Source of the DNA: Candidatus Latescibacterota bacterium
GTDB lineage: Bacteria > Latescibacterota > UBA2968 > GCA-2709665
Direction of reading: 5' to 3'
Assembly: GCA_963667175.2 (NCBI GenBank)
Contig: CAXXXF010000008.1
Location: 1-51,623 of the forward strand
DNA: 51,623 nucleotides
Shown here: one piece after another, positions 9,873 to 36,698 of the stretch
Numbering within the stretch: position 1 is the stretch's first letter
Layout: every line of letters begins with the position of its first letter
Made by a program: the position numbers and the translations under genes
The notes under the pieces: model-generated
Database searches by the model: none
What the model was told of the DNA's origin: nothing
Seen by the model: the letters and a program-made list of their open reading frames with translations, nothing else

Positions 9873-11048
9873 ATGCGAATGGGTAAGACAGCAGACGCCG
9901 TGGTGATCGGCGGAGGCATCATGGGGGCCAGCGCGGCCCATTTTCTGGCGAAGAAGGGCCTCGGCGACGTCGTGCTCCTCGAAAAACGGTCGCTGGCGGC
10001 CGTGAGTACGGGGCATTCGGCCGCTGTGATCCGCACGTTTTACTCGAATGACCTGACCATTCGGACGTCCGCGACGGCGCTGCAGATGTTCGCGAACGGG
10101 GAGGAAGCGCTGGGAGGTGACTGCGACTTTCGCAATACGGGATATGTCTGTCTTCTGGGCGAGCATACTGCCGCGGCGGGACGGGCGGTGCTCGAGGCGG
10201 AGCGGCGGAACGGCACCGGCGCCGTGGAGGTGGACAGGGACGAGATCGGGGAACTGATTCCCGGTGTGAACACGGACGGGATCGTCGCGGGCATCTACGA
10301 ACCTGCTTCCGGGTACGCGGACCCCGTCAAGACGGTCCGGAACCTGGTGACGCGGGCGCAGGAATGGGGTCTGGCGTGTTGCGAGGGGGTGGAGGCAACG
10401 CGGATTCGCCTGTCCGGCAATCGGGTGACCGGCGTGGAAACCGAGGCCGGCGAAATCCGGACCGGTCTGGTGATCAACGCCGCGGGTCCCTGGGGCAGAC
10501 GGATGGGCTTGTCCGCGGGGCTGAATTATTCGCTGCGATGGAGCCGGGAGAGCGATCTGGTCTTGCGCCTGCCGGATGGATACGGGCCCCTTCCGGTCGT
10601 TTCCGATCCCAATCTGAGGGTCTACTTCCGTCCCGACGGCGACAACGGGCTGCTGGCCGGCCTGAGTTTTCCCAAAGAGGTGGAGCCGATGGACGTCGAC
10701 GCGTACGATCCGGACCTGGATGAACCCACGCGCCGCCGCATCGAGAACGGGACCTTCGAACGGGTGCCGGCGTTCCGTGAGTGCGAATACCTGAAGGGGT
10801 GGGCGTCGGTCTATACGATTACCGACGACTGGCATCCGCTGGTGGGACCCGAACCGGGGCTGGAGGGATACTATGCCTTCTTCGGCGGGAGCGGACACGG
10901 GTTCAAGCTGGGGCCGCCCATCGCCGATTCGCTGAGCGACGTGATCCTCGGCCGGACGCCGGCGTTCGACCTGCACCCGTTCCGTCCCTCCAGATTCATC
11001 GAGGGGGAACAGTTCTCGTCCGCATGGGGAGGGGGAAACCGGGGGTGA
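9873..11048 (+). CDS. FAD-dependent oxidoreductase (DAO/sarcosine oxidase beta-like)
   Basis: VIGGGIMG, LLEK, STGHSA, VINAAGPW, TDDWHPLVG and GGSGHGFKLGP. Confidence 0.9.
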   Translation: MRMGKTADAVVIGGGIMGASAAHFLAKKGLGDVVLLEKRSLAAVSTGHSAAVIRTFYSNDLTIRTSATALQMFANGEEALGGDCDFRNTGYVCLLGEHTAAAGRAVLEAERRNGTGAVEVDRDEIGELIPGVNTDGIVAGIYEPASGYADPVKTVRNLVTRAQEWGLACCEGVEATRIRLSGNRVTGVETEAGEIRTGLVINAAGPWGRRMGLSAGLNYSLRWSRESDLVLRLPDGYGPLPVVSDPNLRVYFRPDGDNGLLAGLSFPKEVEPMDVDAYDPDLDEPTRRRIENGTFERVPAFRECEYLKGWASVYTITDDWHPLVGPEPGLEGYYAFFGGSGHGFKLGPPIADSLSDVILGRTPAFDLHPFRPSRFIEGEQFSSAWGGGNRG

Positions 11049-11124
11049 GGGAAGCGGAAATTGATCTCGAGGGAACGAGTCCAACCAAGGCGGCGCTCAA
11101 CGGGCGATTCGCCTTCGTTTCGTT
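10971..11124 (+). repeat. Copy A of the duplicated oxidoreductase 3' end plus terminator-like hairpin
   Basis: Homologous to 12625-12764; core GAACAGTTCTCGTCCGCRTGGGGAGGGGGAAACCGGGGGTGAGGGAAGCGGAA. Confidence 0.9.
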
Positions 11125-11350
11125 TGAGGCGGGATAAACTTGTTCAGACTTTTCCGAGAGACCTTTCTTGCGATCCCACTTTTGCACGACCGTCGCGTCA
11201 AATTCCGAAATCGCTATTCCATTAGACACCAAATGCCGTATATTGAGAAAACTGCCGCAGGTGGTCCGAAATGCTCGTGCTGGATAAGGGAGCAGTTGTG
11301 CAGTTGTGCTGCCCCGGTAAAGCCATGAGCTGAACATCGGGAGTACCGCA

Positions 11351-11806
11351 ATGCCCTTGTCCGATGGCGAATTTGCCTCAATCCTGAATGACGATACGAA
11401 GCGGATTGATGGTGACGTTAACTGGGTTGAGGACGAGGATCACTCCCCTGCATTTGAATTCCGCGTCAACGTCACGTCGGAGAGTGGTTGGCCGCTGTTC
11501 GTCAATGGACGTTTCAATTCGCTCGCAGGTACGCTGACCTACGCGCTAATTCTGACAACCGTGGGCCGCATCTATGGTCTTGACCTCGGAAAGGATCATC
11601 ACAATCCGCAATGTGAACAGGTTGGGGAAAAGCACAAGCATAGGTGGTCAGAACGTTACAGTGATAATGAAGCATATGTACCGCGCGACGTTAAAGCACT
11701 TGTTTCGGATCCCGTGTCGGTTTGGCAGGAGTTCTGCATTGAAGCAGGCATTCGACACGATGGCGTGATGAGTAGACCGCCTGCTATTCAAGGAGAACTG
11801 TGGTAA
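11351..11806 (+). CDS. Conserved hypothetical protein, His-rich, probably DUF6978-like partner of DUF1828 proteins
   Basis: KDHHNP-C-x2-VGEKHKHRW motif; overlaps the downstream gene. Family name is from recall only. Confidence 0.55.
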   Translation: MPLSDGEFASILNDDTKRIDGDVNWVEDEDHSPAFEFRVNVTSESGWPLFVNGRFNSLAGTLTYALILTTVGRIYGLDLGKDHHNPQCEQVGEKHKHRWSERYSDNEAYVPRDVKALVSDPVSVWQEFCIEAGIRHDGVMSRPPAIQGELW

Positions 11807-12597
11807 TGGACAGCAAGGATCTGTGTCAGAAATTGGAACGGGAGATCGGCGTCTTGTTTACGTGCTCGGAACAAGGTGAATTTCACCGTATTCGAACGCC
11901 ATTTCTCTATCCGGATGGCGACAATATCGACCTCTTCTGTAAGGTCTCCAACGATTTGTTGACGATAACCGACCTTGCGGAAACCACCGGTTGGCTCCGA
12001 ATGCAGTCGTCGACTCTTCGTCGTTCCCCGAAGCAGAGACGGCTGATTGAAGATGCGTGTTTGACCCATGGGATAGAGTTCTATCGCGGCATGCTTCAAG
12101 CCCGGTGTCGACCTGGTGATCAGTTGGCGAACGTTGTAACGCGTGTAGCTCAGGCGGCGCTTCGGGTATCCGATTTGTGGTTCACGTTTCGTACACAGTC
12201 CGTGCAATCCGTTACGGATGAAGTTGCGGATATCCTCTCAGAGCGGGAGCTGGGTTACGAGCGTTCCGAAAGGCTTGCCGGCCGATCCGGACGTGGGTGG
12301 ACGGTCGACTTCCACGTCCGGGCGGAGTACAGGAGTTCTCTCGTACAGGTGTTGAGCACCGGGAATCGTGCTGCAGCGCACAGAGTTTCCGAGCACGTGT
12401 TGGCTGCCTGGCACGATCTGAATCACCTTGCATCAGGGCCGGAGGCACTGACTTTCGTCTCCTTGTTCGACGATACTGCCGACGTCTGGGCAGATGAGGA
12501 CTTTCGGTTGGTTGAACCGCTATCTATGGTGTCGCGCTGGTCGAGGCCGGACGAGTTTATCGCTGTTGTCAGTGGAGAGACCCAGAGTTTGCCATGA
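11800..12597 (+). CDS. DUF1828 domain protein
   Basis: IRTPFLYPDGDNIDLF, ITDLAET and a C-terminal GRSG..W.VDF. Confidence 0.75.
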   Translation: MVMDSKDLCQKLEREIGVLFTCSEQGEFHRIRTPFLYPDGDNIDLFCKVSNDLLTITDLAETTGWLRMQSSTLRRSPKQRRLIEDACLTHGIEFYRGMLQARCRPGDQLANVVTRVAQAALRVSDLWFTFRTQSVQSVTDEVADILSERELGYERSERLAGRSGRGWTVDFHVRAEYRSSLVQVLSTGNRAAAHRVSEHVLAAWHDLNHLASGPEALTFVSLFDDTADVWADEDFRLVEPLSMVSRWSRPDEFIAVVSGETQSLP

Positions 12598-12624
12598 AGC
12601 CGCGCCACGGCCGGGAAGCCTGAA

Positions 12625-12764
12625 CTGCGCCCGTTCCGTCCCGATAGGTTCGTTGAGTCCGAACAGTTCTCGTCCGCGTGGGGAGGGGGAAACCGGGGGT
12701 GAGGGAAGCGGAAGCCATCTTCGAGGAAGGCGACTCGCCACCGGTGATTCGCCTTTCTTTCGTT
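12625..12764 (+). pseudogene. Copy B: orphan 3' end of the FAD oxidoreductase plus terminator-like hairpin
   Basis: Translates LRPFRPDRFVESEQFSSAWGGGNRG*, against LHPFRPSRFIEGEQFSSAWGGGNRG* in the intact gene. Confidence 0.85.
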
Positions 12765-12797
12765 AGTGCAGAGGCCAACCGGGCGTCTTGATTACCA

Positions 12798-12825
12798 ATA
12801 GGGGCGAGCGGCCGGTCGCCCCTGC
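12798..12825. repeat. REP palindrome (degenerate) upstream of hsdM
   Basis: ATAGGGGCGAGCGGCCGGTCGCCCCTGC. Confidence 0.75.
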
Positions 12826-12836
12826 AAGGAATTCCG

Positions 12837-15284
12837 ATGACAACCAACGCCAACCTGAACTGGATTGTCAACTACATATGGGGAATCGCCGATGACGTCC
12901 TCCGCGACATGTACGTGCGCGGCAAGTACCGCGACGTGATCCTGCCGATGACCGTGCTGCGCCGGCTGGACGCGGTTCTGGAGGAAAGCAAGCAGGCGGT
13001 CCTGGACATGAAGACCAACCTCGACAAGGCCGGGGTTATCGAGCAGGACGCAACCCTGCGACAAGTCGCGGGACAGGCCTTTTACAATACATCAAAGTTC
13101 ACCCTGCGCGACCTGCGCGCCCGCGCCAATCGCCAGCAGCTCGAGGCCGACTTCAGGGCGTGGCTGGACGGGTTTTCGCCGAACGTCCAGGACATCCTTG
13201 AAAACTTCGAGTTCCGAAACCAGGTCTCCCGGCTATCCAGGGCCGATGCATTGGGCACGCTCATCGAAAAGCTCACGTCACCTGACGTCAACCTGAGCCC
13301 GGACCCGGTGCACAACGCCGACGGAACGGTCAGGCACGCCGGCCTGGACAACCATGGCATGGGCACGATCTTCGAGGAACTGATCCGGCGTTTCAACGAG
13401 GAGAACAACGAAGAGGCGGGAGAACACTGGACCCCGCGCGACGCCGTCACGCTGATGGCGAAGCTGGTCTTTCTGCCCGTCGCTGACGAGATCACATCCA
13501 GCACCTACCTGATCTACGACGGCGCATGCGGTACAGGCGGCATGTTGACCGTGGCCGAAGAGGTACTTCAGCAACTCGCCGCCGAGCGCGGCGAACAGGT
13601 CTCCACCCATCTGTACGGACAGGAAATCAACGCAGAGACCTACGCGATTTGCAAGGCCGACCTTCTGTTGAAGGGAGAAGGAGACGCCGCCGACAACATC
13701 GTGGGCGGTCCGGAGCATTCCACCCTGGCCAACGACGCGTTCCCGTCCCAGGAGTTCGACTTCATGCTCTCCAATCCGCCCTATGGGAAGAGCTGGAAGA
13801 CCGATCTGGAGCGCATGGGCGGTAAGAAGGAAATGCGGGACCCGCGTTTCGTGATCGAGCACGCGGAGGATCCCGAATATTCGCTGGTCACACGTTCCAG
13901 CGACGGCCAGATGCTCTTCCTCGCCAACAAGCTTTCCAAGATGAAGGAGGGCGGCAGTCGCATCGCCGAGGTGCACAACGGCAGTTCGCTGTTCACAGGC
14001 GACGCCGGCCAGGGCGAGAGCAACATCCGCCGCTGGATCATCGAGAATGACTGGCTGGAGGCGATCGTCGCTCTGCCGCATAATATGTTCTACAACACCG
14101 GCATCGCGACCTACGTGTGGGTGATCACCAACCGAAAGCCGGAGCACCGCCGGGGCATGGTGCAGTTGATCGATGCCACGGAGTGGTACCGGCCGCTGCG
14201 CAAGAACCTGGGCAAGAAGAACTGCGAACTCGGCGAGGAAAACGTCCGGCGCATCTGCGACACGTTCCTGGCCTTCGAGGAAACCGAGCAGAGCAAGATC
14301 TTCGACAACGCCGCCTTCGGCTACTGGAAGGTGACGGTCGAACGGCCGCTGCGGCTCGAAGGGATTGACCCCGACCGCGTCTATAAGGCCTCCGAAATCA
14401 AGAAGCTGAAGGAGAGTTGCGAGCGAAGCGAAACCGCGCCCCCTGTCATCAAGAAAATCCACAAAAAGGGCACGGAAGCCGACCCGCTTTGCGGCAGGTT
14501 CGAGGCGAGTGTCGACGGCAAGCCAACCGTCGTCGAGTACGAGCCGGACACCGACCTGCGCGACACCGAGCAGATTCAGCTTCAGGAGGAAGGCGGCATC
14601 GAAGCGTTCCTGAAGCGGGAGGTCCTGCCCTACGCGCCCGACGCTTGGTTCCGACCGGACAGTGTCAGGATCGGCTACGAGATAAGCTTTACGCGATACT
14701 TCTACAAACCCCAGCCGATGCGGACCCTGGAGGAAATCGGGGCGGATATCAGAGCGCTGGAGAAAGAGACCGAGGGGTTACTCGGCGACCTGCCGATGGT
14801 ACGCGAGGCCAAACCCGCCTACACGACCAGGCCCAGGGTTTACGTGGACACCTCGGTCATCGGCGGCTGCCATGACGATGAGTTTCGCGAAGCCTCATTG
14901 CGCCTGTTCGAGCTTTTTCGCCGAGGCGACGCAACGCTGGTCATTTCGGAAGTGACACTCGCGGAATTGAAGATCGCGCCACCCGATGTAACTGCCATTT
15001 TCAATCAGGTTCCCGATCCTCACGTGGAGACACTTCCGGAATCTGCAGAGGCGTCAAGACTTGCTGACGCTTACATTACATCCGGTGCGATAGGCCCCGC
15101 CCAATACAATGATGCCCTGCACGTGGCGATCGCCAGCCTGGGCAAAGTCGACGTCATCGCAAGCTGGAACTTCAGGCACATGGTAAACTGGGGCCGCATT
15201 CAGGTCTATAACAGAGTCAATCAGGAGCTCGGCTATCCGGCTATAGACATTCGATCCCCGGAGGTATTTACTCATGAGCAGTAA
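12837..15284 (+). CDS. hsdM: Type I R-M methyltransferase subunit M fused to a C-terminal PIN domain
   Basis: IWGIADDVLRD, YRDVILPMTVLRR, AGEHWTPRD, YDGACGTGGML (SAM binding), NPPY and IGYEISFTRYFY. It continues in frame into YVDTSVIGG...E...DALHVA..SWNFRH (PIN). Confidence 0.92.
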   Translation: MTTNANLNWIVNYIWGIADDVLRDMYVRGKYRDVILPMTVLRRLDAVLEESKQAVLDMKTNLDKAGVIEQDATLRQVAGQAFYNTSKFTLRDLRARANRQQLEADFRAWLDGFSPNVQDILENFEFRNQVSRLSRADALGTLIEKLTSPDVNLSPDPVHNADGTVRHAGLDNHGMGTIFEELIRRFNEENNEEAGEHWTPRDAVTLMAKLVFLPVADEITSSTYLIYDGACGTGGMLTVAEEVLQQLAAERGEQVSTHLYGQEINAETYAICKADLLLKGEGDAADNIVGGPEHSTLANDAFPSQEFDFMLSNPPYGKSWKTDLERMGGKKEMRDPRFVIEHAEDPEYSLVTRSSDGQMLFLANKLSKMKEGGSRIAEVHNGSSLFTGDAGQGESNIRRWIIENDWLEAIVALPHNMFYNTGIATYVWVITNRKPEHRRGMVQLIDATEWYRPLRKNLGKKNCELGEENVRRICDTFLAFEETEQSKIFDNAAFGYWKVTVERPLRLEGIDPDRVYKASEIKKLKESCERSETAPPVIKKIHKKGTEADPLCGRFEASVDGKPTVVEYEPDTDLRDTEQIQLQEEGGIEAFLKREVLPYAPDAWFRPDSVRIGYEISFTRYFYKPQPMRTLEEIGADIRALEKETEGLLGDLPMVREAKPAYTTRPRVYVDTSVIGGCHDDEFREASLRLFELFRRGDATLVISEVTLAELKIAPPDVTAIFNQVPDPHVETLPESAEASRLADAYITSGAIGPAQYNDALHVAIASLGKVDVIASWNFRHMVNWGRIQVYNRVNQELGYPAIDIRSPEVFTHEQ

Positions 15285-15480
15285 ATCCACCCCGAAGGAA
15301 TTCGACTGCGTGAAGTTCACGCGCGAAGTACGTGCGCAGTTGTACAAGGAAACCGCGCATATGACTGTAGAGGAGAAGGTGGACTATTATCGAAACCAGA
15401 CGTACACCGACCCGGTGCTGGCCCGTCTGGCGTCCAAGGCCCGTCCACCCAAGGAAACAGATCCTGCTCTCCGCGACTGA
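15274..15480 (+). CDS. Small PIN-associated putative antitoxin
   Basis: FDCVKFTREVR...MT.EE...YYR; overlaps the PIN stop; paralog of 16110-16307. Confidence 0.65.
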   Translation: MSSKSTPKEFDCVKFTREVRAQLYKETAHMTVEEKVDYYRNQTYTDPVLARLASKARPPKETDPALRD

Positions 15481-16120
15481 TGCCTGGTATCGACCCGATA
15501 GCGTGCGGACCGGCTACGAGATCAGCTTTACGCGATACTTCTACAAACCCCAGCCGATGCGGACGTTAGAGGAAATAGGGGCGGATATCAAAGCGCTGGA
15601 GAAAGAGACCGAAGGGCTGCTCGGCGACCTGCCGTTGGTGCGCGAACCGCCGGCTGTGTACGGCAAACCGCGCATCTACGTAGACACCTCGGTGATCGGC
15701 GGGTGTCTGGACGAGGAGGTCCGTGAGGCATCCATGGAGTTGTTTGATAAGTTCAAGCACGGAGATGCTATCCTCATTTATTCAGAAGTCATTCTCAGGG
15801 AACTGGCGGGGGCACCGGAAAGCGTGCGCAATGTGATCGATCAGATTCCCGCTGCGAACAAAGAGATGCTCTTTCTCACAGATGAGGCAGAACGGCTTGC
15901 GGACGCATACATTGGTTCCGGGGCTCTGGGCCTTGCGAACCGCGCCGACGCGGAGCATATCGCCCTGGCAACCCTGGCTGAGGCCGACGTTTTGGCAAGC
16001 TGGAATTTCAGGCACATGGTGAACTGGCGACGAAACCGGTTGTACAACGCAGTCAACCGGCAAATGGGGTACGAGGAATTGAACGTCCTATCCCCGGAGG
16101 CGATCAGCTATGACAAATGA
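15479..16120 (+). CDS. Orphan cassette: duplicated HsdM C-terminal tail fused to a second PIN domain
   Basis: DAWYRPDSVRTGYEISFTRYFYKPQPMRTLEEIGADIKALEKETEGLLGDLP followed by IYVDTSVIGG..DAEHIA..SWNFRH. No clear RBS, so it may be silent. Confidence 0.8.
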   Translation, partial: DAWYRPDSVRTGYEISFTRYFYKPQPMRTLEEIGADIKALEKETEGLLGDLPLVREPPAVYGKPRIYVDTSVIGGCLDEEVREASMELFDKFKHGDAILIYSEVILRELAGAPESVRNVIDQIPAANKEMLFLTDEAERLADAYIGSGALGLANRADAEHIALATLAEADVLASWNFRHMVNWRRNRLYNAVNRQMGYEELNVLSPEAISYDK

Positions 16121-16307
16121 TACCGCAACCGAGAGGTTCGACTGCATCCGCTTTGTGCGTGAGGTTCGTGCGAGGATTGCCGCAGAAACAGCCGGCATGA
16201 GCCCTGCAGAGCGCATCCAGTACTATCGCACGTATCGCTATGAAGATCCTGTTCTGGAACGACTGGCGGCGCCATTGCGCGAATCGGACACGGACATAAG
16301 AGGGTGA
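16110..16307 (+). CDS. Small PIN-associated putative antitoxin (paralog 2)
   Basis: FDCIRFVREVR...MS..E.IQYYR..Y.DPVL.RLA. Confidence 0.65.
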   Translation: MTNDTATERFDCIRFVREVRARIAAETAGMSPAERIQYYRTYRYEDPVLERLAAPLRESDTDIRG

Positions 16308-16399
16308 ACCCTGATATTTACCCGGTCGTGCAGCCTGCAAGAGACAGGGTTTGCACGTTAATTCATATAAATCCGCCGCAACTAGACACGTCAAAGCCA

Positions 16400-16516
16400 A
16401 ATCGGATTCGGCGATACATCGCGGATCACCCGGCCCAATGGTCGAAGGAATGGTAGAATTCTGCCGTTAGGTATGGCCAGGATCCTATCGCCGTCGGGGC
16501 GACCGGCCGGTCGCCT
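16400..16516 (+). pseudogene. Degenerate RAYT 3' end remnant followed by a degenerate REP
   Basis: ATCGGATTCGGCGATACATCGCGGA...CTGCCGTTAGG resembles 18080-18151; it is followed by GTCGGGGCGACCGGCCGGTCGCC. Confidence 0.65.
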
Positions 16517-16559
16517 GCGCCTGCATTGACGCTGTGACAGCCGCCGAATTCGGGAGGAG

Positions 16560-16889
16560 ATGGAAATGACAACGGAAACCCTGAATCAGCATATTGAGAT
16601 CACCCCGGGCATTTCAGGTGGCAAACCGCGCATTGTCGGTCGTCGAATTGCCGTCGAGAATATCGTCATCTGGCACGAGCGCCTGGGCAAGAGCGCCGAC
16701 GAAATCGCCAGTGATTACGACGTTTCCCTGGCGGATGTGTACGCGGCACTGGCTTACTATTTCGATCATCAGAATGAGATTGACCGATCGCTTGAGGAGA
16801 GTCGAGCATTTGTAGATTCCTTGCGTCAGAAGTTTTCTTCGAAGATTTCCCAAAAGATCCAAGACTCGACCCAACATGGCAACGATTAA
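16560..16889 (+). CDS. DUF433 antitoxin (VapB45-like)
   Basis: ITPGISGGKPRI.GRRI.V and EIA.DY.VSLADVYAALAYY. Confidence 0.88.
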   Translation: MEMTTETLNQHIEITPGISGGKPRIVGRRIAVENIVIWHERLGKSADEIASDYDVSLADVYAALAYYFDHQNEIDRSLEESRAFVDSLRQKFSSKISQKIQDSTQHGND

Positions 16890-17205
16890 GTTTTTGACCG
16901 ATGAGAATGTCTCCAGAGCAGTTGTAATGGGACTCCGTCGGAGAGGCGTGGACGTACTGACTGTTGCCGAAGCCGGGAATCTTGGTGCGTCAGACGAGGC
17001 AATCCTTGGAATTGCCAGGGAAACAGAACGAGTCATCTTCACGCAGGACGATGACTTTCTTCGTCTTGCAGCGTTTGTACCTGACCACAGAGGAATTGTC
17101 TACACGTCTCAAGAAAACACGGTTGGTGAGATAATTCGTGGCTTGATGTTGAACTATCAGGTTTTGGAAGCCGAAGAGATGGCCGGGCATGTTGAATACC
17201 TGTAG
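16876..17205 (+). CDS. DUF5615 PIN-like toxin (VapC45-like)
   Basis: FLTDENV, DEAIL, IFTQDDDF and HRGIV. Confidence 0.85.
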   Translation: MATIKFLTDENVSRAVVMGLRRRGVDVLTVAEAGNLGASDEAILGIARETERVIFTQDDDFLRLAAFVPDHRGIVYTSQENTVGEIIRGLMLNYQVLEAEEMAGHVEYL

Positions 17206-17227
17206 AACACAAGGAAGTCGTGGCTAA

Positions 17228-17406
17228 CAGTCCGTTGAAAAAGTCGCTCTGCAGGCGAGGCCGAGTCATTGTGGCCGAAGACAAGGCGCGCGACCGACGC
17301 GCATCCCTGGATTCGGGGAGGGAGCGCCTGCCTGCTGCAGGCAGGCAACGCAGTAACTCGGCCACAAGGGCCGGACGCAGACCGGATGGACTTTTTCAAC
17401 GGGCTG
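17228..17406. mobile_element. 179 bp MITE with IS-like termini and CTAA target duplication
   Basis: Left end CAGTCCGTTGAAAAAGTC, right end GACTTTTTCAACGGGCTG, CTAA at 17224-17227 and 17407-17410. Confidence 0.85.
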
Positions 17407-17481
17407 CTAACTCAGACCCATGAATTCTGACCACGCCCGGGTCTGGCCTCTGCTGCTCACACCTGGGACCTGACCACCCTC

Positions 17482-17600
17482 AAGATCGGCTATGAAATCA
17501 GCTTCACGCGATACTTCTACAAACCCCAGCCGATGCGGACGTTGGAAGAAATTCGTGCCGATATTTCGTCAGTGGAGAGAGAGGCCAGAGGGGTATTTGG
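17482..17600 (+). repeat. Third copy of the hsdM 3' tail, in frame with RAYT
   Basis: KIGYEISFTRYFYKPQPMRTLEEIRADISSVEREARG. Confidence 0.85.
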
Positions 17601-17619
17601 ACGAAAATCTGAAGGAAAA

Positions 17620-18174
17620 ATGAACCCCTCCTGCGATCTGGAGAAATATCACCGTCGGTCGATCCGATTGCGTGACTACGATTATTCGCGATCTGGCGCA
17701 TACTTTGTCACTGTCTGCACGAAGGGGCAGGAACTACTGTTTGGCAATGTGAGTGATGGTGACGTGGAACTAAACGAATTTGGTCGTATTGCAGCAGAGG
17801 AATGGCTGCAATCTGCACGGATCCGCGACGAGATCGAACTGGACGCCTGGATTGTCATGCCCAACCATGTCCATGGTATCGTCATCATTACCGACGAACA
17901 CAGCAGGGGCGACCGGCCGGTCGCCCCAAGCGGACCACGATCGAGGTCTCTCGGCGCGATGATGGCAGGATTCAAATCTGCTGCAACCAAACGCATCAAC
18001 TCGATTCGTTGCGCGCCCGGTGCATCCGTTTGGCAACGCAATTACTACGAACACGTTATCAGAAACCAATCCGTGCTTTATCGGATTCGACAATACATCG
18101 CGGAGAACCCTGCCGGATGGCCGGAAGACCCGGAGAATCCTGCCGTGAGGGGCCGTAGGGATACATTTGGCTGA
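17620..18174 (+). CDS. REP-associated tyrosine transposase (RAYT, Y1 HUH)
   Basis: HRRSIRL..YDYS..GAYFVT.CT, MPNHVHGI (HUH), FKS, WQRNYYEHVIR and YIAENP. Contains an in-frame REP at 17903-17927. Confidence 0.93.
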   Translation: MNPSCDLEKYHRRSIRLRDYDYSRSGAYFVTVCTKGQELLFGNVSDGDVELNEFGRIAAEEWLQSARIRDEIELDAWIVMPNHVHGIVIITDEHSRGDRPVAPSGPRSRSLGAMMAGFKSAATKRINSIRCAPGASVWQRNYYEHVIRNQSVLYRIRQYIAENPAGWPEDPENPAVRGRRDTFG

Positions 18175-18319
18175 TTAGAGACCGGCCTTAACGTCGAACG
18201 AACGGTCCATCTAATCGCCGTAGGGGCGACCGAACAGGACGCGACAAGCGATCGATGCGGCCATTCGGCGTCGGGACGACCGAACAGGGCCTGACACACA
18301 CCCGATTCAACCATACGGT

Positions 18320-18347
18320 GTAGGGGCGACCGGCCGGTCGCCCCTAC
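18320..18347. repeat. REP type 1 (also at 18772-18798, 19217-19244 and 22112-22139)
   Basis: Perfect palindrome GTAGGGGCGACCGGCCGGTCGCCCCTAC. Confidence 0.92.
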
Positions 18348-18468
18348 AATGGTGAATGTGATCATGACCACAGATCTCAATTCCTATCCTGCCTATATGG
18401 ACTCTGGCGTAGAATGGCTGGGGAAGGTGCCGGCGCAGGAGCATCGGGCCGTCGAATGTTTGAAGGAT

Positions 18469-18497
18469 GTAGGGGCAGGTTTGAAACCTGCCCCTAC
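18469..18497. repeat. REP type 2 (also at 18914-18942)
   Basis: GTAGGGGCAGGTTTGAAACCTGCCCCTAC hairpin. Confidence 0.9.
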
Positions 18498-19744
18498 TAC
18501 GAACGTGTTATCAGCAAGGAATGCGAGTTGGATCAGATTCGGCAATACATCGCGGAGAACCCTGCCGGATGGTCGGAAGACCCGGAGAATCTCGCCGTCA
18601 GGGGCCGTAGGGATACATTTGGCTGATTAGAGACCGGCCTTAACGTCGAACGAACGGTCCATCTATTCGCCGCAGGGGCGACCGAACAGGACGCGACAAG
18701 CGATTGATGCGGCCATTCGGCGTCGGGACGACCGAACAGGGCCTGACACACACCTGATTCAACCATTCGGTTTAGGGCGACCGGCCGGTCGCCCCTACAA
18801 TGGTGAATGTGATCATGACCCCAGATCTCAAATCCTATCCTGCCTATATGGACTCCGGCGTAGAATGGCTGGGGCGAGTGCCGGCGCATCGGGCCGTCGG
18901 ATGTTTGAATGATGTAGGGGCAGGTTTGAAACCTGCCCCTACTACGAACGTGTTATCAGCAAGGAATCCGAGTTGGATCAGATTCGGCAATGCATCGCGG
19001 AGAACCCTGCCGGATGGTCGGAAGACCCGGAGAATCCTGCCGTGAGGGGCCGTAGGGATACATTTGGCTGATTAGAGACCGGCCTTAACGTCGAACGAAC
19101 GGTCCATCTAATCGCCGTAGGGGCGACCGAACAGGACGCGACAAGCGATTGATGCGGCCATTCGGCGTCGGGACGACCGAACAGGGCCTGACACACACCC
19201 GATTCAACCATTCGGTGTAGGGGCGACCGGCCGGTCGCCCCTACAATGGTGAATGTGATCATGACCCCAGATCTCAAATCCTATTCGACCTATAAGGACT
19301 CCGGCGTAGAATGGCTGGGTGAGGTACCCGCTCATTGGGACCTCAGGAGAACCAAGAGTCTCCTACGCGAACGAAGCGAAAAGGGATTTCCGAATGAACC
19401 ATTACTGGCAGCGACTCAATCAAAGGGGGTTGTTCGCAAGGAAAAATATGAGAACCGGACAGTTCTGGCAACGAAGGATCTGGATCTGCTCAAAATCGTG
19501 CGCGTCAGCGACTTTGTAATCAGCCTTAGGTCCTTTCAGGGCGGTATCGAGTATGCACGGGAACAAGGGATAATCAGTCCTGCATACACGATACTGTATC
19601 CAATCGAACCAAATCACCAAGCTTATCTTGCCAGAATCTTCAAATCACGTCCCTACATCGAGAATCTATCGCTATTTGTGACGGGTATTCGTCAGGGTCA
19701 AAACATAGATTACGAGAGACTCACCCGTTCCTATCTGCCCCTAC

Positions 19745-21296
19745 CAGCCTGTTGAAAAAGTATGAATTTTCGAAGTCATGGTCAAAAAAGTATTGTTTGT
19801 GTCATGTGTTTGTTGGTAAGATAGAGGAAACGTGCAGTAAGCAGAGAAGTCGAGTGTTGAAGGAGGTCGGTGATGTCGATGAGCAGGCGTCAAGAAAGTC
19901 ATCAGGAGGAAATGTGGGTGCCTTCCAGCACGCTGTCCGAGGGTCCTGGGCATCCGTTTTACACGCGCCTGAACAGGCTGCTGTCCGAGGGTGGTTTCGA
20001 TCCCTTTGTGGAAGGGCAGTGCGCGCCGTATTACGCGGAGACGTTGGGGCGTCCCAGTATCGCTCCCGGGGTGTATTTCCGCATGCTGATGATCGGCTAT
20101 TTCGAGGGTTTGAGCTCGGAGCGGGGCATCGCCTGGCGTGTTGCCGATTCGCTTTGTCTGCGCCGCTTTCTGGGTATTCCCTTGAGCGAATCGCCGCCGG
20201 ATCACTCGAGTCTGTCGCGCATAAGGCAGCGCTTGCCGGTGGAGGTGCACGAAGCGGTCTTCACGTTTGTGCTGAAGGTGTTGGTCGGCCACGACCTGCT
20301 CAAGGGCAAGACGGTGGCGGTGGACGCCACCACGCTGGAAGCCAACGCGGCGATGAAAAGCATCGTGCGGCGGGACACGGGCAAAGCCTACCACGAGTAT
20401 CTGGAAGGGCTGGCCCGGGCCGAAGGCATCCCAACCCCGACGAAGCAGGACCTGGCCCGGCTCGACAAGAAGCGCACGAATAAGGCTTCCAACAAGGACT
20501 GGGAACATCCCCATGATGCGGATGCCCGCGTTACCAAGATGAAGGACGGACGCACGCATTTGGCTCACAAGGCCGAGCATACGGTCGATCTGGACACTCA
20601 GGCGCTGGTGGCCATAACGGTATGTGGCGCCGATAAAGGGGACACCGAGTCGCTGGGCGGGAGTTTGGACCAAGCCGACCGGAATCTGCAAGCGGTCGGG
20701 GACATCGATGACAAGACGGCACTTCGCGAAGTGGTGGCGGATAAGGGATATCACAGCAATCACACCATGAAGACCTTGAAGACGGCAAAGATCCGCAGCT
20801 ACGTCTCGGAACCGGATCGCGGACGGCGAAACTGGAAAAAGGATGCGGCGGCCAAGATGGCGGTGTATGCAAATCGCCGGCGCATACGAGGCGTCCGTGG
20901 GCGCGCCCTGCAGCGGCAGCGCGCCGAGGTGGCAGAACGCAGTTTTGCGCACACCTATGAAACCGGGGGGATGCGTCGCACGCACCTGCGCGGCCACACC
21001 AACATCTACAAACGGCTGTGTATACACGGCGGCGCTTTCAATCTCTCCCTCGTGATGCGACAGATCACCGGCAAGGGCACCCCGAGGGCGTTGCATGGGT
21101 TGCTATCGGCATTCGGCACCTTTGTTCATCGCCTCAAACGCGCTCTCGAGGCCCGTAAAACAATTTCACGGCGTCTTTCCGCATTCTTTCCCTATTTGAA
21201 AACTTAGTGCCCATTGCCGACACGCAACACACATCAAACATACCCTACCCTCTTTTCCACGATTCTTCGCTGAAATCCCGTTTTTTCAACGGACTG
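19745..21296 (+). mobile_element. Insertion sequence, IS5/IS1182-like, 1552 bp
   Basis: IRs CAGCCTGTTGAAAAA and TTTTTCAACGGACTG; CTAC target duplication at 19741-19744 and 21297-21300. Confidence 0.92.
19870..21207 (+). CDS. DDE transposase (DUF772 + DDE_Tnp_1 type)
   Basis: GRPSIAP, PDHSSLSR.RQR, AVDATTLEANA, VVADKGYHS and ERSFAH. Confidence 0.92.
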   Translation: MMSMSRRQESHQEEMWVPSSTLSEGPGHPFYTRLNRLLSEGGFDPFVEGQCAPYYAETLGRPSIAPGVYFRMLMIGYFEGLSSERGIAWRVADSLCLRRFLGIPLSESPPDHSSLSRIRQRLPVEVHEAVFTFVLKVLVGHDLLKGKTVAVDATTLEANAAMKSIVRRDTGKAYHEYLEGLARAEGIPTPTKQDLARLDKKRTNKASNKDWEHPHDADARVTKMKDGRTHLAHKAEHTVDLDTQALVAITVCGADKGDTESLGGSLDQADRNLQAVGDIDDKTALREVVADKGYHSNHTMKTLKTAKIRSYVSEPDRGRRNWKKDAAAKMAVYANRRRIRGVRGRALQRQRAEVAERSFAHTYETGGMRRTHLRGHTNIYKRLCIHGGAFNLSLVMRQITGKGTPRALHGLLSAFGTFVHRLKRALEARKTISRRLSAFFPYLKT

Positions 21297-22185
21297 CTAC
21301 CACCTGCCTCAGAACAAGCCGCCATCGTCCGCTTCCTTGATCACGCCGACAGGCGCATCCAGCGCTACATCCGCGCCAAGCAGAAGCTGATTGCGCTGAT
21401 GGAGGAGCAGCGCAAGGCCACTACACAAGAAGTGATTCAATCACGGAGTGTTACCTCGAATAAGATTGAGGTCGTTGCAGACTTGGTCGAAAGGCCGGTT
21501 CACCGAGTCGCCACCGACACATACACCCCGATTGGTCTTTACAACCGAGGACGAGGAATCTTTAAAAAGGAACCTCGTAACGGCAGTGAACTGGGAGATT
21601 CCGATTTCTTCTGGATCGAAAAAGGTGATTTGGTTCTCAGCGGACAGTTTGCTTGGGAAGGGGCAATCGCACTAGCAGATGACACTGAGTCCGGGTGCGT
21701 TGCAAGTCACCGCTATCCTATCCTACGGGGTAGGCAGGACGTTTTGGATTCGGGATTCTTGATGGCGTTTTTCCAGACAGACTGGGGCCAGCTTCTTCTT
21801 GATCACCATTCGAGAGGTGCCGCGGGACGGAACAAGCCTCTCAATGCAAGAACCCTTCTGAAAGAGAAGATACCTCTGCCGCGTCCTCGCCAGCAATCGG
21901 ATATAGTAGAAATGCTGCAACGCGAGAAGTTCGTTCGCCAACAGGCAGAAGACCTTAAAAGACTGTTGAGCGAATACCGCACCCGCCTGATCGCCGATGT
22001 CGTCACCGGAAAGCTGGACGTGCGCGAAGCGGCGGCTGACCTGCCTAAGGAAGACGTGACCGGCGATGAGGAAGAATCGGCGGAAGGCAACATGATCGAT
22101 CATCCAATGATGTAGGGGCGACCGGCCGGTCGCCCCTACCGCGAACCGGCGCCGACCGCACTGTTGCCCGTCGACCGATTGTTGG

Positions 22186-26287: not shown

Positions 26288-27301
26288 TTAGTGAAGCAAC
26301 TGATGGCATTCGATGGTGTTCTGTGGTTGGTTAATCCAGACTTGGTCTGGAACGCGTGGTGGACGAGGATGCCCCTTAACAAATCGTTCAGGGTGGTTGT
26401 GATAGGCCTGGTCCAGCACCGATTGTCTGGCGGCTTGAAACTGCTGTGTCAGCCCGTGGTGGACGGTATCGGGCGTGAGTAAGCCCAGTCCGCTGTGCCG
26501 GTGTTGTGTGTTGTACCAGGGAAAGAAGGCCTGTAAATAGGTGCGTGCTTCTTGCGGGTTGGTGAAGCGCCCGGGGTATGAAGGCGCGTATTTGAGCGTC
26601 TTGAATTGGCTTTCGGAATACGGGTTGTCATCGGACACACGGGGTCGAGAGTAGCTGGCCAGGATGTCGAGGTCCATCAGCAACTGCGAAAAGGTCTTGG
26701 CCGTCATGGGTGCGCCGCGGTCCTGGTGCAGCGTCAGTTGTCGGGGTTGAATGCCCTGTTTCTGGCATGCGTTGGCAATCAGGCGCTTGGCGTATGTGGC
26801 GCTCTCCCTTGTGGCGACCGTCCAGGCCACGACATAGCGTGAGAACAGATCCAGTACAACGTAGAGGGGATAGGTCACCCACTTGCGTGGTCCTGGCAGC
26901 CGCGTGATATCCCACGTCCAGACCTGGTTGGGCGCATCCGCCATCAAGCGGGGCGGTTCCAGACGTGGATGACGGAGCTGGTGTCTCCGCTGGCGCACTT
27001 CCCCTGCGTCGTGAAGCAGACGGTACATGGTCCGGATCGAGCAGACATACCGCCCTTCCTCCAGCAACGCGGCGTAGACTGCCGGTGGCGCCTGGTCTGC
27101 GAAGCGGTCCTCGTGCAGGATGTCCAGCACGGCGGCGCGCTCGTTTTGGGAAAGCGCACGTGGCGACGAGGACCGCGCGCCACGAGGCGTGCGTGGGGCT
27201 GGCTGACGCGCACGGTAGACCGAAGCCCGCGCCACACCCAGGGCCCGGCACGCGGAAGCCAAGCCCACCTTCGGGGCCAGTTGTTCTGCCGCACGGATCA
27301 T
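26288..27301 (-). CDS. IS3 transposase OrfB (rve integrase core)
   Basis: PNQVWTWDIT, LDLFSRYVVAW, HQDRG, DNPYSESQFKTLK and YN.QHRHSGLG. Confidence 0.92.
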   Translation of the reverse strand: MIRAAEQLAPKVGLASACRALGVARASVYRARQPAPRTPRGARSSSPRALSQNERAAVLDILHEDRFADQAPPAVYAALLEEGRYVCSIRTMYRLLHDAGEVRQRRHQLRHPRLEPPRLMADAPNQVWTWDITRLPGPRKWVTYPLYVVLDLFSRYVVAWTVATRESATYAKRLIANACQKQGIQPRQLTLHQDRGAPMTAKTFSQLLMDLDILASYSRPRVSDDNPYSESQFKTLKYAPSYPGRFTNPQEARTYLQAFFPWYNTQHRHSGLGLLTPDTVHHGLTQQFQAARQSVLDQAYHNHPERFVKGHPRPPRVPDQVWINQPQNTIECHQLLH

Positions 27302-33844: not shown

Positions 33845-35506
33845 CTACCGCGCGCCCCCGTCCCTGAGCATCTTCGCGATCTCCGCATGCCCGCGGCGTT
33901 CCGCCCAGGCCATGGGCGCTGCCCACTCGGCGCCGGCAGCGTTCGGGTCGGCGCCGCTTTCCAGCAGCAGCCCAACCAGCTCCGCGTTTCCCTCGCGGGC
34001 GGCGATCCCCAGCGGGGTGGACCGGTCTTCCTCGTCTATTGCGTTGATGTCCGCGCCGTACTCAAGGAACAAACGCACCATCGCGGCCGGGTCGGACACG
34101 GCACGGATGCCGCTGCAGAGGTCGTGTAGCGGGGTCCGCCGCTGCCAGTCGGGCAGGTCCGGGTCCAGGCCGTGTTCCAGGAGCCGGCGCGTCATACGCG
34201 GCACGTGGTACAGGTAGGTCTTGCATGCGGTAAGCACGTGCGGCATCGGGTGTTTGCGCTGCAGGAACATATTGAGCATGGCCTCGTGGGCGTCCGTGGA
34301 TTCTCCGTGGTCCTCCTTGCGCCCGCAGCCGCTGACGACGGCGGTGTAGGGCGTGGTCAGATACTCGGTCTCCTCATTGGAAAACGGATCGTCGGTGTAG
34401 CGCAGAATCGCCGCCACGGTTTCGAGCTCGCCGCGCTGCACGTAGCCCCACGCGCCTGAGGCGCGCCCTCCATAGCCGTACAGGAGACCCCGCATGGCGT
34501 CGGTACGGGCGCGGATCGCGGGGGAACCCGAGGAGTTGACGTGTCCGTTCGGATCGGCCCCGGCCTCCAGAAGCCACCTCGCGACTTCAAGGTCGTCCTC
34601 CACGGTGGCGCTCATCAGCGACGACCCGTAGGGGCACATGCGACCCTCCGGCAGGATGGGGTCCGCGCCGCTGTCCAGCAGAAATCGGACGATTTCGCGA
34701 TGACCGTGCTCCACGGCGGCCGAGAGCGGACGCTTCCGAATTCCGTCGCCGTCGTTCACGGCCGCGGGATCAGCCGCGACGAACGCGCGAACGGCATCCA
34801 GGTCGCCCCTCGCCGCGGCCAGCGTGGGGCTGTCGCGGGAGCCTGATTTTCGAAGCAGTTCAGCCAGTTCCGGGTTCACCCTTGAACGGTGCCACATCAG
34901 GTCGCGCCAACGGGCATAGTGGACGGCGCGAAACCCGGCATGGTCCGTCGCGTCGACCTCGATATTGCTCTTGAGAAGAATCTGAGCCGCTGTCTCGTCG
35001 TTCTCAACGACCGCAACGTGCAGCGCGGTCCTGCCTTCTGCGTCCCGTTGTGATGCGATCCCGTCCGAATCTTCGAGAAGGCGATGGATCTTCGCGTGAT
35101 CTCCGGCTTTCACGGCCTCGTGCAGCGGAAGATCCGACGCCTCGCCGGCGCCGACAGCCTTGCGGAGATAATCGGCCACTGCCGCGTGGCCGCGGTCGTC
35201 GGCCATGACAATCAGATCGGACACCTCGTCGTGTGCATAGGCTTCCCACAACACCCGTGTCGCGTCGAGATTGCCCTCCCGAACCGCGAAGTGGAGCGGC
35301 GGGGTATACCAGAACTGCAGTCTGGCGCGGTTCGGATCCTTGCGAAGGTGCTCGCGCAGGGCGTCGGCGTCATTCCGGATCGCGGCGCCGATGAGTTCCC
35401 AATACAGGCGCCCCGCCTCCGTTTCTACGCACCAGGACGGGCGATGCATGGCGTCGATGACGTCCTGCGGCGTTCGATCCGATTCGCCGGTTTTTTCGAT
35501 GTTCAT
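33845..35506 (-). CDS. Ankyrin repeat protein (C-terminal part of an in-frame read-through ORF)
   Basis: Repeated TPLH/TALH...LL..GADPN; own AAGGA RBS before MNIEK. Confidence 0.85.
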   Translation of the reverse strand: MNIEKTGESDRTPQDVIDAMHRPSWCVETEAGRLYWELIGAAIRNDADALREHLRKDPNRARLQFWYTPPLHFAVREGNLDATRVLWEAYAHDEVSDLIVMADDRGHAAVADYLRKAVGAGEASDLPLHEAVKAGDHAKIHRLLEDSDGIASQRDAEGRTALHVAVVENDETAAQILLKSNIEVDATDHAGFRAVHYARWRDLMWHRSRVNPELAELLRKSGSRDSPTLAAARGDLDAVRAFVAADPAAVNDGDGIRKRPLSAAVEHGHREIVRFLLDSGADPILPEGRMCPYGSSLMSATVEDDLEVARWLLEAGADPNGHVNSSGSPAIRARTDAMRGLLYGYGGRASGAWGYVQRGELETVAAILRYTDDPFSNEETEYLTTPYTAVVSGCGRKEDHGESTDAHEAMLNMFLQRKHPMPHVLTACKTYLYHVPRMTRRLLEHGLDPDLPDWQRRTPLHDLCSGIRAVSDPAAMVRLFLEYGADINAIDEEDRSTPLGIAAREGNAELVGLLLESGADPNAAGAEWAAPMAWAERRGHAEIAKMLRDGGAR

Positions 35507-36583
35507 CCCGATCCTTTCCGTGGATTCGCGTTGACTTCCGTTCGTCCGTTCTTCCTTCACGATTCTCTGTTCGAATCGGAACACGTTCTCGCTGGCGGGG
35601 TCCACCGTTACCTCGATCCAGTGTACGTCGGAGGCGCCGAACGTCTCCACGCGCGTGAAATTCGCAATGCGCTTCCCGCCCCCCTTGCGCCGAAGCGGCT
35701 TGTCGATCCGGAAATAATGGGAGTCGCCGTGCGCCAGCACCACGGGACGGCCGAATCGCGCCGTTTCCTCGCGCAACACGTCGAGGACCTCCTGAAAGTG
35801 GGGCGGGTCCGGTTTCGGCTTCTGCTCCAGGCCCATCGTGGCATGAAGGGTTAGAAAAAGACCCTTGCCAGATTCACCTGCCGCGGCGAAAGCTTCGCGA
35901 AGCCACGCGATACCGGCCCGGGTGCGCCGTTCGACCGCCGCGTCGTGCCGTTCCGTCCTCATCGGGATCGTGCCAACCTCGGTCGAGTCCCGGCGCTGAA
36001 ACGCAGCCAGCCCGTTCCTGCTACCCACAATATGAACGGTTGCAAAATGGACCCCGGCCCGTTCCCAGCGGACGTTCTCGATGAACTCGCTGTATTCCGG
36101 AAACGACGCCTGGGATTCAACTCGCATCGGACGCTTTCCGAGCGTCATCCCGGCGCGGGGATAGAACAGTGACCGCAGTTTCCGGAGGCGTTCCAGCGGA
36201 TCGAAGCGGCCGGCATTCTTCTTATGGCAGTCCGTCCATTCGTTGTCGCCCGGCGTGAGGATGAACGGGTACTCGAAGCGGTTGAATCTCTCCAGGCGTT
36301 CCGCAAGAAATGCGTCCGTGCAGGGTTGGCCGCCGCTTTTGACGTCGCCGGCGTGGATGACCCATTGAACGTCCCTATCGGCGTTGATCTGGTCGATCAC
36401 CCTTGCGAACCGCAGGCTGTCGCGGTGGGCGTAGGGCACGTCTCCGATCAGGGCAAAGGTAAACGTGTCACCGCCCGCCCGGCTTTGCGAGGGCGCGAAG
36501 GCGACCGCGGCGACAAGGGCCAGGACCCCGGCCGCCGCTGTGATTGACCGTACAACGTGGCTTGCGTGATCGTTCGAATTCAT
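35507..36583 (-). CDS. Secreted calcineurin-like metallophosphoesterase, with no stop before the ankyrin gene
   Basis: Signal peptide, IGDVPY, HAGDVKSG, PGDNEWTDC and HGDSH. Confidence 0.8.
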
Positions 36584-36698
36584 CAGATCTCCATCGTGTA
36601 AGTACGTCTCATTCCGATCCCCGTCCGGTTTCTGGGAACCATCGAAGGCGCCTGGCATCCGGTCGCCGGCCGGATATATTCCTGAGAAGAGTAAACCC

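Follow-up and report, generated by a model that had tools for sequence, protein, structure and literature searches.

An HsdM-PIN fusion and repeated hsdM tails in a type I restriction-modification locus suggest cassette turnover between lineages

How does a type I restriction-modification (R-M) locus come to hold the end of its methylase gene three times, each time ahead of a different gene? The question is raised by a stretch of 51,623 nucleotides from Candidatus Latescibacterota bacterium (assembly GCA_963667175.2, contig CAXXXF010000008.1, positions 1 to 51,623), which we call the window and in which a type I R-M locus spans 12837-22115 on the + strand. An earlier note on this DNA had claimed that copies 1 and 2 of the hsdM tail read into two PIN paralogs and copy 3 into a RAYT open reading frame (ORF), and had inferred that recombination between the tails would exchange the effector carried by HsdM. 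According to our analysis, the locus probably belongs to a subfamily of type I R-M systems in which HsdM is fused to a VapC-like PIN domain with the gene of an inhibitor downstream, and in which the stretch from the tail to hsdS would be a recombination hotspot for tail-flanked cassettes. The turnover of these cassettes is a matter of evolutionary time, between lineages, and not a programmed switch.

The hsdM 3' tail (motif …GYEISFTRYFYKPQPMRTLEEI…) is present in three copies in the window, all in direct orientation, which bears out the earlier note. A repeat search of the window returned a three-copy direct repeat family of 121 nucleotides (14665-14785, 15504-15624 with 90% identity, and 17480-17600 with 78%), and a 35-nucleotide core is exact in all three copies (at 14691, 15530 and 17506; expected 0.00 in 100 shuffles). 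Tail copies 1 and 2 are homologous across 187 nucleotides (86% identity; see Table 1 for the coordinates of all features). Because the homology of tail 2 begins at 15459, upstream of the stop codon of the first partner gene (15478-15480), this gene ends within hsdM-derived sequence; copy 2 does not begin inside that stop codon, as had been thought, since the homology starts before it and the GTG start of the following ORF sits 23 nucleotides after it. A fourth, decayed tail was found on another contig of the same genome (G000:C2:3859-3981). It lies in a decayed hsdM 3' fragment (G000:C2:3799-3981; 1300-1700 of locus L003) with a 97-residue open frame ending ...LEKETEGLLGKSSVSNVKGRGY*, which is followed by an hsdS-like fragment and is distant from any intact hsdM.

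The first tail reads into a PIN domain, as had been claimed: one ORF of 815 residues carries HsdM_N and N6_Mtase (Pfam, E 1.2e-20 and 2.4e-52, respectively) and a weak PIN match at residues 668-774, and the NPPY and DGACGTGG motifs are present in the HsdM translation. For comparison, we searched the PIN1 part against one genome per species and used the best 80 of 101 confirmed candidates as related loci (numbered with L). An uninterrupted frame of HsdM core, tail and PIN (814-939 residues) is found in 36 of these 80, and with five more that have a frameshift or are truncated where a contig ends (L020, L021, L030, L045 and L068) there are 41 fused-type loci. Their common gene order is hsdM::PIN, partner, hsdS, an hsdR-like gene comes after hsdS in 32 of the 41, and hsdS is intact in most related loci. 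The related loci are spread over Latescibacterota, Gemmatimonadota, Rhodothermales, Gammaproteobacteria, Bryobacterales and others, and the identity of the fused PINs goes down to 44% across fused-type loci of several phyla. In a collection of 5.8 billion proteins, N6_Mtase is found on 103 out of 110 'long' proteins (at least 288 residues) carrying a PIN1-type PIN, and the few named members among them are called 'N-6 DNA methylase' or 'type I restriction enzyme M protein'; the majority of the PIN family are stand-alone proteins of ~150-160 residues (2145 matches; 3099 representatives in a separate scan). Judged from these comparisons, the HsdM::PIN fusion is a conserved architecture.

Structure prediction gives some indication of what the fused domain may do. 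The PIN1 model has a predicted local distance difference test (pLDDT) score of 88.2, and its top Foldseek matches are VapC toxins (probability 1.00, target-normalised TM-score 0.59-0.68), the best VapC structure match being 6ifc_A (E 2.7e-5). D20, E59 and D108 are invariant in 25 PIN sequences, and the fourth acidic place is occupied by the invariant N127 and H130. Each PIN in the window has its own small overlapping partner gene, as the earlier note had described. Using a hidden Markov model (HMM) of the partner, we found that the PIN is directly followed by a partner ORF in each of the 41 fused loci and in 19 of 39 loci without the fusion, and because of the latter we regard PIN and partner as a module of its own. 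The partner matches no named family in Pfam, PADLOC or NCBIfam and only unnamed clusters in Atlas. When PIN1 and partner 1 were predicted as a complex, the complex-prediction score ipSAE was 0.88 as compared to 0.00 for the best control, three runs shared at least 95% of the contacts, and the pLDDT of the partner was at least 79; in calibration, 58 of 80 solved complexes attained this mark, as did 2 of 110 mismatched pairs, counts that hold only roughly here since we used alignments of our own. The predicted interface (D20-G26, S53-E59, D108 and W126-N127) is the active site of the PIN domain, and the model supports the partner being an inhibitor placed over it. Putative roles are toxicity and RNase activity of the PIN domain and neutralisation by the partner. 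In one locus (L059, 9968-14127), a stand-alone PIN and four partner-like ORFs are found directly upstream of an unfused-looking hsdM, and a partner-like ORF without a PIN comes after the tail of that hsdM.

Evidence for an exchange of cassettes comes from comparing the window with two related loci, L025 (a syntenic locus from a species of the same genus) and L012. The window aligns with L025 over 11001-14896 (L025 6210-10104, 90.5% identity) and again over 15459-16315 (L025 9831-10686, 95.6%), and the DUF433/DUF5615 pair further downstream is 97.6-97.9% identical to that of L025. The second tail reads into a different PIN paralog, as had been claimed (PIN2, 63% identical to PIN1), and this PIN2 is 98.75% identical at the amino acid level to the HsdM-fused PIN of L025, with 97% for the respective partners. 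HsdM is fused to PIN2 in three related loci (L025, L024 and L103, at 91-99% amino acid identity). Up to ~14790, the sliding identity of the window's hsdM is 0.79-0.98 to L025 and 0.61-0.92 to L012; along PIN1 and partner 1 (~14840-15459) it is 0.91-0.99 to L012 and 0.47-0.70 to L025. In a five-way alignment of tails, the left switch falls at ~14790-14800, at the end of tail 1, the joint between partner 1 and tail 2 is common to the window and L012, and tail 2 changes over near 15515, being like tail 2 of L012 before this point and like the L025 tail after it. Between the two switch points both tails of the window are L025-like, which fits an ends-in (gap-repair) or Campbell-type integration of a [tail-PIN1-partner1] unit into a resident tail.

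Divergence estimates agree with different histories for the gene body and what lies behind it. Synonymous divergence (dS) between the window and L025 is 0.456 for the HsdM core and 0.046 for PIN2, and because of this inequality the region behind the tail must be the product of a later exchange than the gene body. An HsdM core with 89.7% or more identity to that of the window is found in eight loci; seven of them carry fused PINs that are only 50-63% identical to PIN1 (there is no PIN1 figure for the eighth, the frameshifted L068), and the closest relative of PIN1 (93.7%) rides on a core that is only 82% identical. Taken together, the alignments and identity profiles show the window to be a mosaic, in which the cassette behind the tail was swapped between lineages by recombination at the tail. 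The parsimonious direction would be an insertion into the lineage of the window, since PIN1 stands ahead of PIN2 only there and hsdM::PIN2 is the form found in three species of the clade. A tract of ~1.6 kb (15640-17228, containing PIN2, partner 2, DUF433 and DUF5615) is 97.6-98.5% identical to L025, with flanking genes at 87-91%, which suggests a recent transfer between species.

Table 1. Coordinates of the features of the type I R-M locus (D and I numbers denote families of direct and inverted repeats).
Feature	Position	Strand	Basis and remarks
hsdM::PIN1 fusion gene, 815 residues	12837-15284	+	ORF, Pfam; core 12837-14603, tail 14604-14789, PIN1 14790-15284
hsdM tail copy 1	14620-14806	+	repeat families D3/D5, alignments, sliding identity; L025-like to ~14790
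Partner 1, 68 residues	15274-15480	+	ORF, partner HMM match; overlaps PIN1 end by 11 nucleotides
hsdM tail copy 2	15459-15645	+	hybrid: like tail 2 of L012 to ~15515, L025-like beyond
Tail and PIN2 ORF, 205 residues from GTG	15503-16120	+	intact; frame open from 15371
Partner 2, 65 residues	16110-16307	+	ORF, partner HMM match; overlaps PIN2 end by 11 nucleotides
RAYT 3'-end fragment and REP palindrome	16401-16522	+	between cassettes; repeat families D4, D6
DUF433 / DUF5615 (PIN_10), separate two-gene module	16560-17205	+	Pfam
MITE-like short repeated element, inverted ends	17228-17406		inverted repeats I18, I22
hsdM tail copy 3	17480-17600	+	relic of unfused hsdM 3' end
RAYT-like gene	17617-18174	+	own start ~17617; ORF call extends to 17533 through tail 3
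Three tandem units of ~450 base pairs	18043-19344	+	each RAYT 3' end, REP and hsdS 5' head; families D1, D2, D4, D6
hsdS split by insertion sequence	19246-22115	+	N part 19246-19755, transposase 19870-21207, C part 21207-22115

The sequence of events that we consider probable is as follows. The PIN would be joined translationally to HsdM just after the C-terminal tail helix, with the inhibitor gene immediately downstream. An incoming cassette flanked by tails would recombine with the resident tail (ends-in or Campbell-type homologous recombination), so that the new cassette would land beside HsdM and the old one, with its own tail copy, would be shifted downstream. In the window, a PIN1-partner1 cassette like that of L012 would have entered an hsdM::PIN2 locus like L025, turning PIN2 and partner 2 into an orphan unit, and tail 3 (91% identical to the L025 tail, whose end reads '...EGLLDEIIGDGRRS*') would be the relic of a still older, unfused hsdM end. 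The PIN may be a toxin that is silenced by its partner and tethered to the R-M complex, where it could serve addiction or as a back-up by abortive infection, on the model of PrrC with EcoprrI or RonA with HsdMS. Cassette turnover may be driven by phage conflict or by post-segregational killing, and inhibitors encoded by phages could drive the diversity of the cassettes. A retained old partner gene would spare the recombinant from the old toxin while this is still present, and such retention downstream would explain arrays of partner genes. The number of promoter-like signals for the displaced cassette (3 sites vs 3.1 expected) is not above chance.

Related loci contain further traces of this kind. 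Among the 41 fused loci, five have extra tails (L012, L016, L017, L025 and L053), ten have extra copies of the partner (L013, L015, L016, L017, L024, L025, L029, L030, L053 and L056), and seven contain PIN 3' fragments that begin near an SWNFRHMVN motif. We also examined 151 relatives (numbered with G) for the hsdM tail; 68 are tail-positive, and nine of these have at least two tails within 10 kb (G000, G003, G005, G007, G009, G012, G015, G016 and G130), with differing cassettes downstream. Orphan tails terminate like the ordinary unfused HsdM (…EGLL.EIIG…*). The genes found after them encode GmrSD and a TIGR02391 protein in L012, HicAB and Fic in L100, and an AAA_13 ATPase in L102. Moreover, in L100 and L101 the head of hsdS (…PSGVEWLG…) continues in frame into the hsdM tail region (…GIEGFLRREVLPYA…), a joint that is expected from a head-to-tail duplication or a circle of the segment from the hsdM tail to the hsdS head. 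Repeated tails are thus a general sign that cassettes have entered between hsdM and hsdS, and the cassette with PIN is the special case in which an in-frame fusion arose. On contig C2 of G058 there are three scattered hsdM copies with identical tail matches (frames of 658 residues) and a 90-residue orphan, which hints at a mobile element carrying hsdM.

RAYT does not behave as a third cassette of the same sort. There is indeed no stop between tail 3 and the RAYT ORF in the window, so the open frame seen in the earlier note is real, but the effector role assigned to it does not hold: the homologous tail-RAYT junction of L016 (78% identity) has a stop between tail and RAYT. The open frame is therefore not conserved, and RAYT is no effector cassette. 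We rejected RAYT as a fused effector also in view of its own start and of the orphan tails that end like unfused HsdM. The RAYT-like gene stays below the cut-offs of both families that it resembles (62.1 bits vs 80 for REP_Tyr_transpos of NCBIfam, and 20.9 vs 23 for Y1_Tnp of Pfam), and repetitive extragenic palindromic (REP) sequences lie around it. REP-like palindromes (GGGGCGACCGGCCGGTCGCCCC) are seen at 12799-12832, 16494-16522, 17904-17932, 18321-18349, 18772-18800 and 19218-19246, flanking the locus and its units; one is inside the RAYT-like ORF and is translated as ...GDRPVAP..., and 3'-end fragments of RAYT recur four times (families D4 and D6).

The R-M part of the window's locus is decaying. 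hsdS is split by an insertion sequence (IS), as supported by Pfam (DUF772/DDE and a weak Methylase_S match) and by tblastn matches to hsdS of related loci, and hsdS-head ORFs beginning MVNVIMT...GVEWLG are found at 18349, 18800 and 19246. There is no hsdR nearby: none of the ten HSDR_N matches in the genome is on the window's contig, and none of ten large ORFs of the window has an HsdR domain. A short element resembling a miniature inverted-repeat transposable element (MITE; ~180 base pairs) is absent at the corresponding site of L025 by alignment, is very abundant among the metagenome contigs placed on the window (depth 174-1053 in its bin), and is bordered by loose contig ends at 17224-17228 and 17406. 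Its terminal inverted repeats resemble an end of the DDE IS (19741-21207) that splits hsdS. No integrase was found next to the array, and the only transposase-type genes are the RAYT-like gene, the DDE IS and an rve gene (26288-27301); an integron-like or integrase-driven insertion was rejected for lack of an adjoining integrase.

Contigs from sequencing runs bear on two other explanations. We placed Logan contigs from runs including X1 and X2 on the window; such contigs drop rare variants, stretches without cover prove nothing, and X1 may be the source sample. The tandem array could be an assembly artefact, with strains carrying hsdM::PIN1 and hsdM::PIN2 fused via their shared tail, so that the array would not exist on one molecule. 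The mosaic does switch at or within the repeated tail, both forms are found in the same kind of metagenomes, and none of the listed contigs bridges the partner1-tail2-PIN2 junction (15480-15540), which therefore rests on the window's assembly and the joint shared with L012. However, the left switch is located where the L025-like and L012-like sequences have no long identical word in common, a contig of X1 (which is possibly the source sample itself) covers 14619-14890 across it, L012 has the partner1-tail2 joint independently, and multi-tail arrays are present in other genomes including the single-contig assemblies G009, G015, G016 and G130. We give the artefact only a slim chance. Even less probable, in our judgment, is programmed or high-frequency switching, by which recombination between tails within a population would swap PIN1, PIN2 and RAYT on HsdM in a phase-variable style. 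The exact 35-nucleotide core would suffice for RecA-dependent deletion, and the deletion product that this predicts, hsdM::PIN2, exists in relatives and on a contig of X2, which joins 14796 to 15636. But this contig has 23 differences in 260 hsdM positions (91% identity) and hence comes from another, L025-like lineage; a deletion between direct repeats cannot be undone, there are neither inverted repeats nor a recombinase, a stop interrupts the tail3-RAYT frame in L016, the orphan tails elsewhere are ordinary HsdM termini, and hsdS is IS-disrupted in the window. Several further tail-tail joints are either short on a side or interrupted by foreign letters (in that from 14572 to 17482, for example, the shorter side counts 26 letters), and we took these for other hsdM alleles and not for recombinants. 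The idea that recombination at the tails exchanges the effector of HsdM is therefore upheld between lineages (L025, L024, L103 and the mosaic) and not as switching going on within a population, and likewise the predicted HsdM-PIN2 join was seen, only in a relative.

It is also conceivable, though unlikely, that the tails and orphan units are neutral debris, i.e., passive scars of illegitimate insertion and of REP/RAYT- or IS-driven rearrangement in a 'genomic sink', with fusion and turnover being functionless. In favour of this, the units are separated by REP palindromes and 3' fragments of RAYT, the locus contains a MITE-like element and an IS, the R-M part is decaying in the window, and many orphans elsewhere are fragmentary. 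Debris would not be expected to keep the in-frame fusion in 36 of 41 fused-type loci from several phyla with PIN identities down to 44%, and PIN1 as compared to L012 has a ratio of non-synonymous to synonymous divergence (dN/dS) of 0.17. Furthermore, the breakpoints are in homologous sequence and the tails are hybrid, as homologous recombination predicts, and the displaced PIN2 and partner 2 are intact. Several observations weigh against the tail-mediated cassette turnover that we favor, besides the unbridged junction mentioned above. No within-strain recombinant was seen among the Logan contigs, which drop rare variants. Many orphan units elsewhere start near the SWNFRHMVN motif and not at the tail, so the tail is not the sole breakpoint, and by sliding identity the tail is not the most conserved stretch of hsdM DNA. 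PIN2 and its L025 counterpart have only seven nucleotide differences in 160 codons (five synonymous and two non-synonymous), a number too low to gauge selection on the displaced PIN2. As for the toxin-inhibitor pair, of the four acidic residues canonical for PIN domains the fourth could not be made out, and the toxin-first gene order and a partner without DNA-binding domain are unlike VapBC. The model of full-length HsdM::PIN1 (pLDDT 63, pTM 0.33, with a low-confidence linker at 646-661) is too poor to place the PIN.

The layout can be compared with several known systems. Polymorphic toxin loci of the Rhs/CdiA type have arrays of orphan C-terminal toxin/immunity genes, and their carriers are secreted or delivered by contact. 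The earlier note drew this parallel, which is apt as a description of the gene layout: in both cases there are a conserved body, a conserved box, a variable C-terminal nuclease and a small cognate protein that binds it, a part of the box stays with displaced units, and exchange is by recombination at the box. The carrier here, however, is a cytoplasmic DNA methylase subunit in which a domain search found only HsdM_N, N6_Mtase and PIN and no secretion or delivery domain, and the repeated box also precedes unfused genes (HicAB, Fic, GmrSD and AAA_13). In phase-variable type I R-M systems (hsdS shufflons, e.g. the pneumococcal tvr locus), inverted hsdS repeats and a site-specific recombinase change the target specificity reversibly. 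Here too, repeats inside the hsd operon yield alternative gene products by recombination, but they are direct, lie in hsdM and come without a dedicated recombinase. VapBC is similar in that the PIN fold is nearest to VapC and the inhibitor is predicted to cover the acidic active site; it differs in that our putative inhibitor is encoded downstream and belongs to no recognised family, and that the PIN is a domain of an 815-residue methylase.

Closer to R-M systems, PrrC with EcoprrI and Ronin (HsdMS with RonA) have a toxic effector tied genetically and physically to type I HsdM/HsdS, and, in the portions of the two reports considered here, the effectors are proposed to fire when anti-restriction proteins hit the complex (10.1101/2023.04.06.535777, 10.1101/2024.01.29.577857). 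The effector in our locus differs from these in being a PIN covalently fused to HsdM with a predicted protein inhibitor of its own. Type I R-M operons that contain PIN toxin-antitoxin genes and other defence genes have been described (Matelska et al. 2017, PMC5499597; Payne et al. 2024, 10.1101/2024.01.29.577857). Going by the parts of these papers that we draw on, such operons resemble our loci in having PIN nucleases, DUF433-PIN_10, GmrSD and ABC ATPases between hsd genes in the same orientation; their embedded genes are separate and no entry route is given, whereas here we see an in-frame fusion of the PIN, and the entry of cassettes is marked by duplications of hsdM tails and of hsdS heads. 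We found no account of an HsdM-PIN fusion or of repeated hsdM tails in the literature covered, which did not include supplements (among them Figure S7 of PMC5499597, which may show such operons).

Defence systems are now being discovered through genes that are embedded in type I R-M operons, and how such genes arrive there is unexplained; duplicated hsdM tails, joints of hsdS heads with hsdM tails, and mosaic breakpoints would together make up a concrete, testable mechanism of entry. The earlier note did not recognise this as a described system, but it is not an isolated one: the fused form is frequent in public data (103 protein clusters), and the tail repeats also flank non-fused cassettes. 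Because these proteins are labelled only 'N-6 DNA methylase', a whole class of nucleases that are tethered to methylases and paired with predicted inhibitors of their own has gone unnoticed. One may go further and see the tail as a homologous-recombination exchange site that diversifies a tethered PIN toxin and its inhibitor against phage, a cytoplasmic counterpart of polymorphic toxin loci in which HsdM::PIN would be a guard firing upon an attack on the R-M complex, and at the same time as a general route by which defence and toxin-antitoxin genes enter type I R-M operons, and displaced units of tail and PIN (PIN2 for one) could still be made and attach to HsdM/HsdS by the tail helix; we offer this wider reading tentatively and consider it rather doubtful. 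If the PIN were triggered via the R-M complex, the fusion would be a covalent version of the PrrC/Ronin logic, and the polymorphism of the cassettes would be a readable record of phage conflict.

Other genes of the window include two just upstream of hsdM (11351-12597) that match PDC-M24A (E 4.1e-66) and PDC-M24B (E 1.5e-102), candidates for phage defence in PADLOC, a gene pair that is syntenic in L025 and L053. Further downstream, on the - strand (33845-37042), a protein of 1065 residues is encoded that contains many ankyrin repeats and a calcineurin-like phosphoesterase domain.

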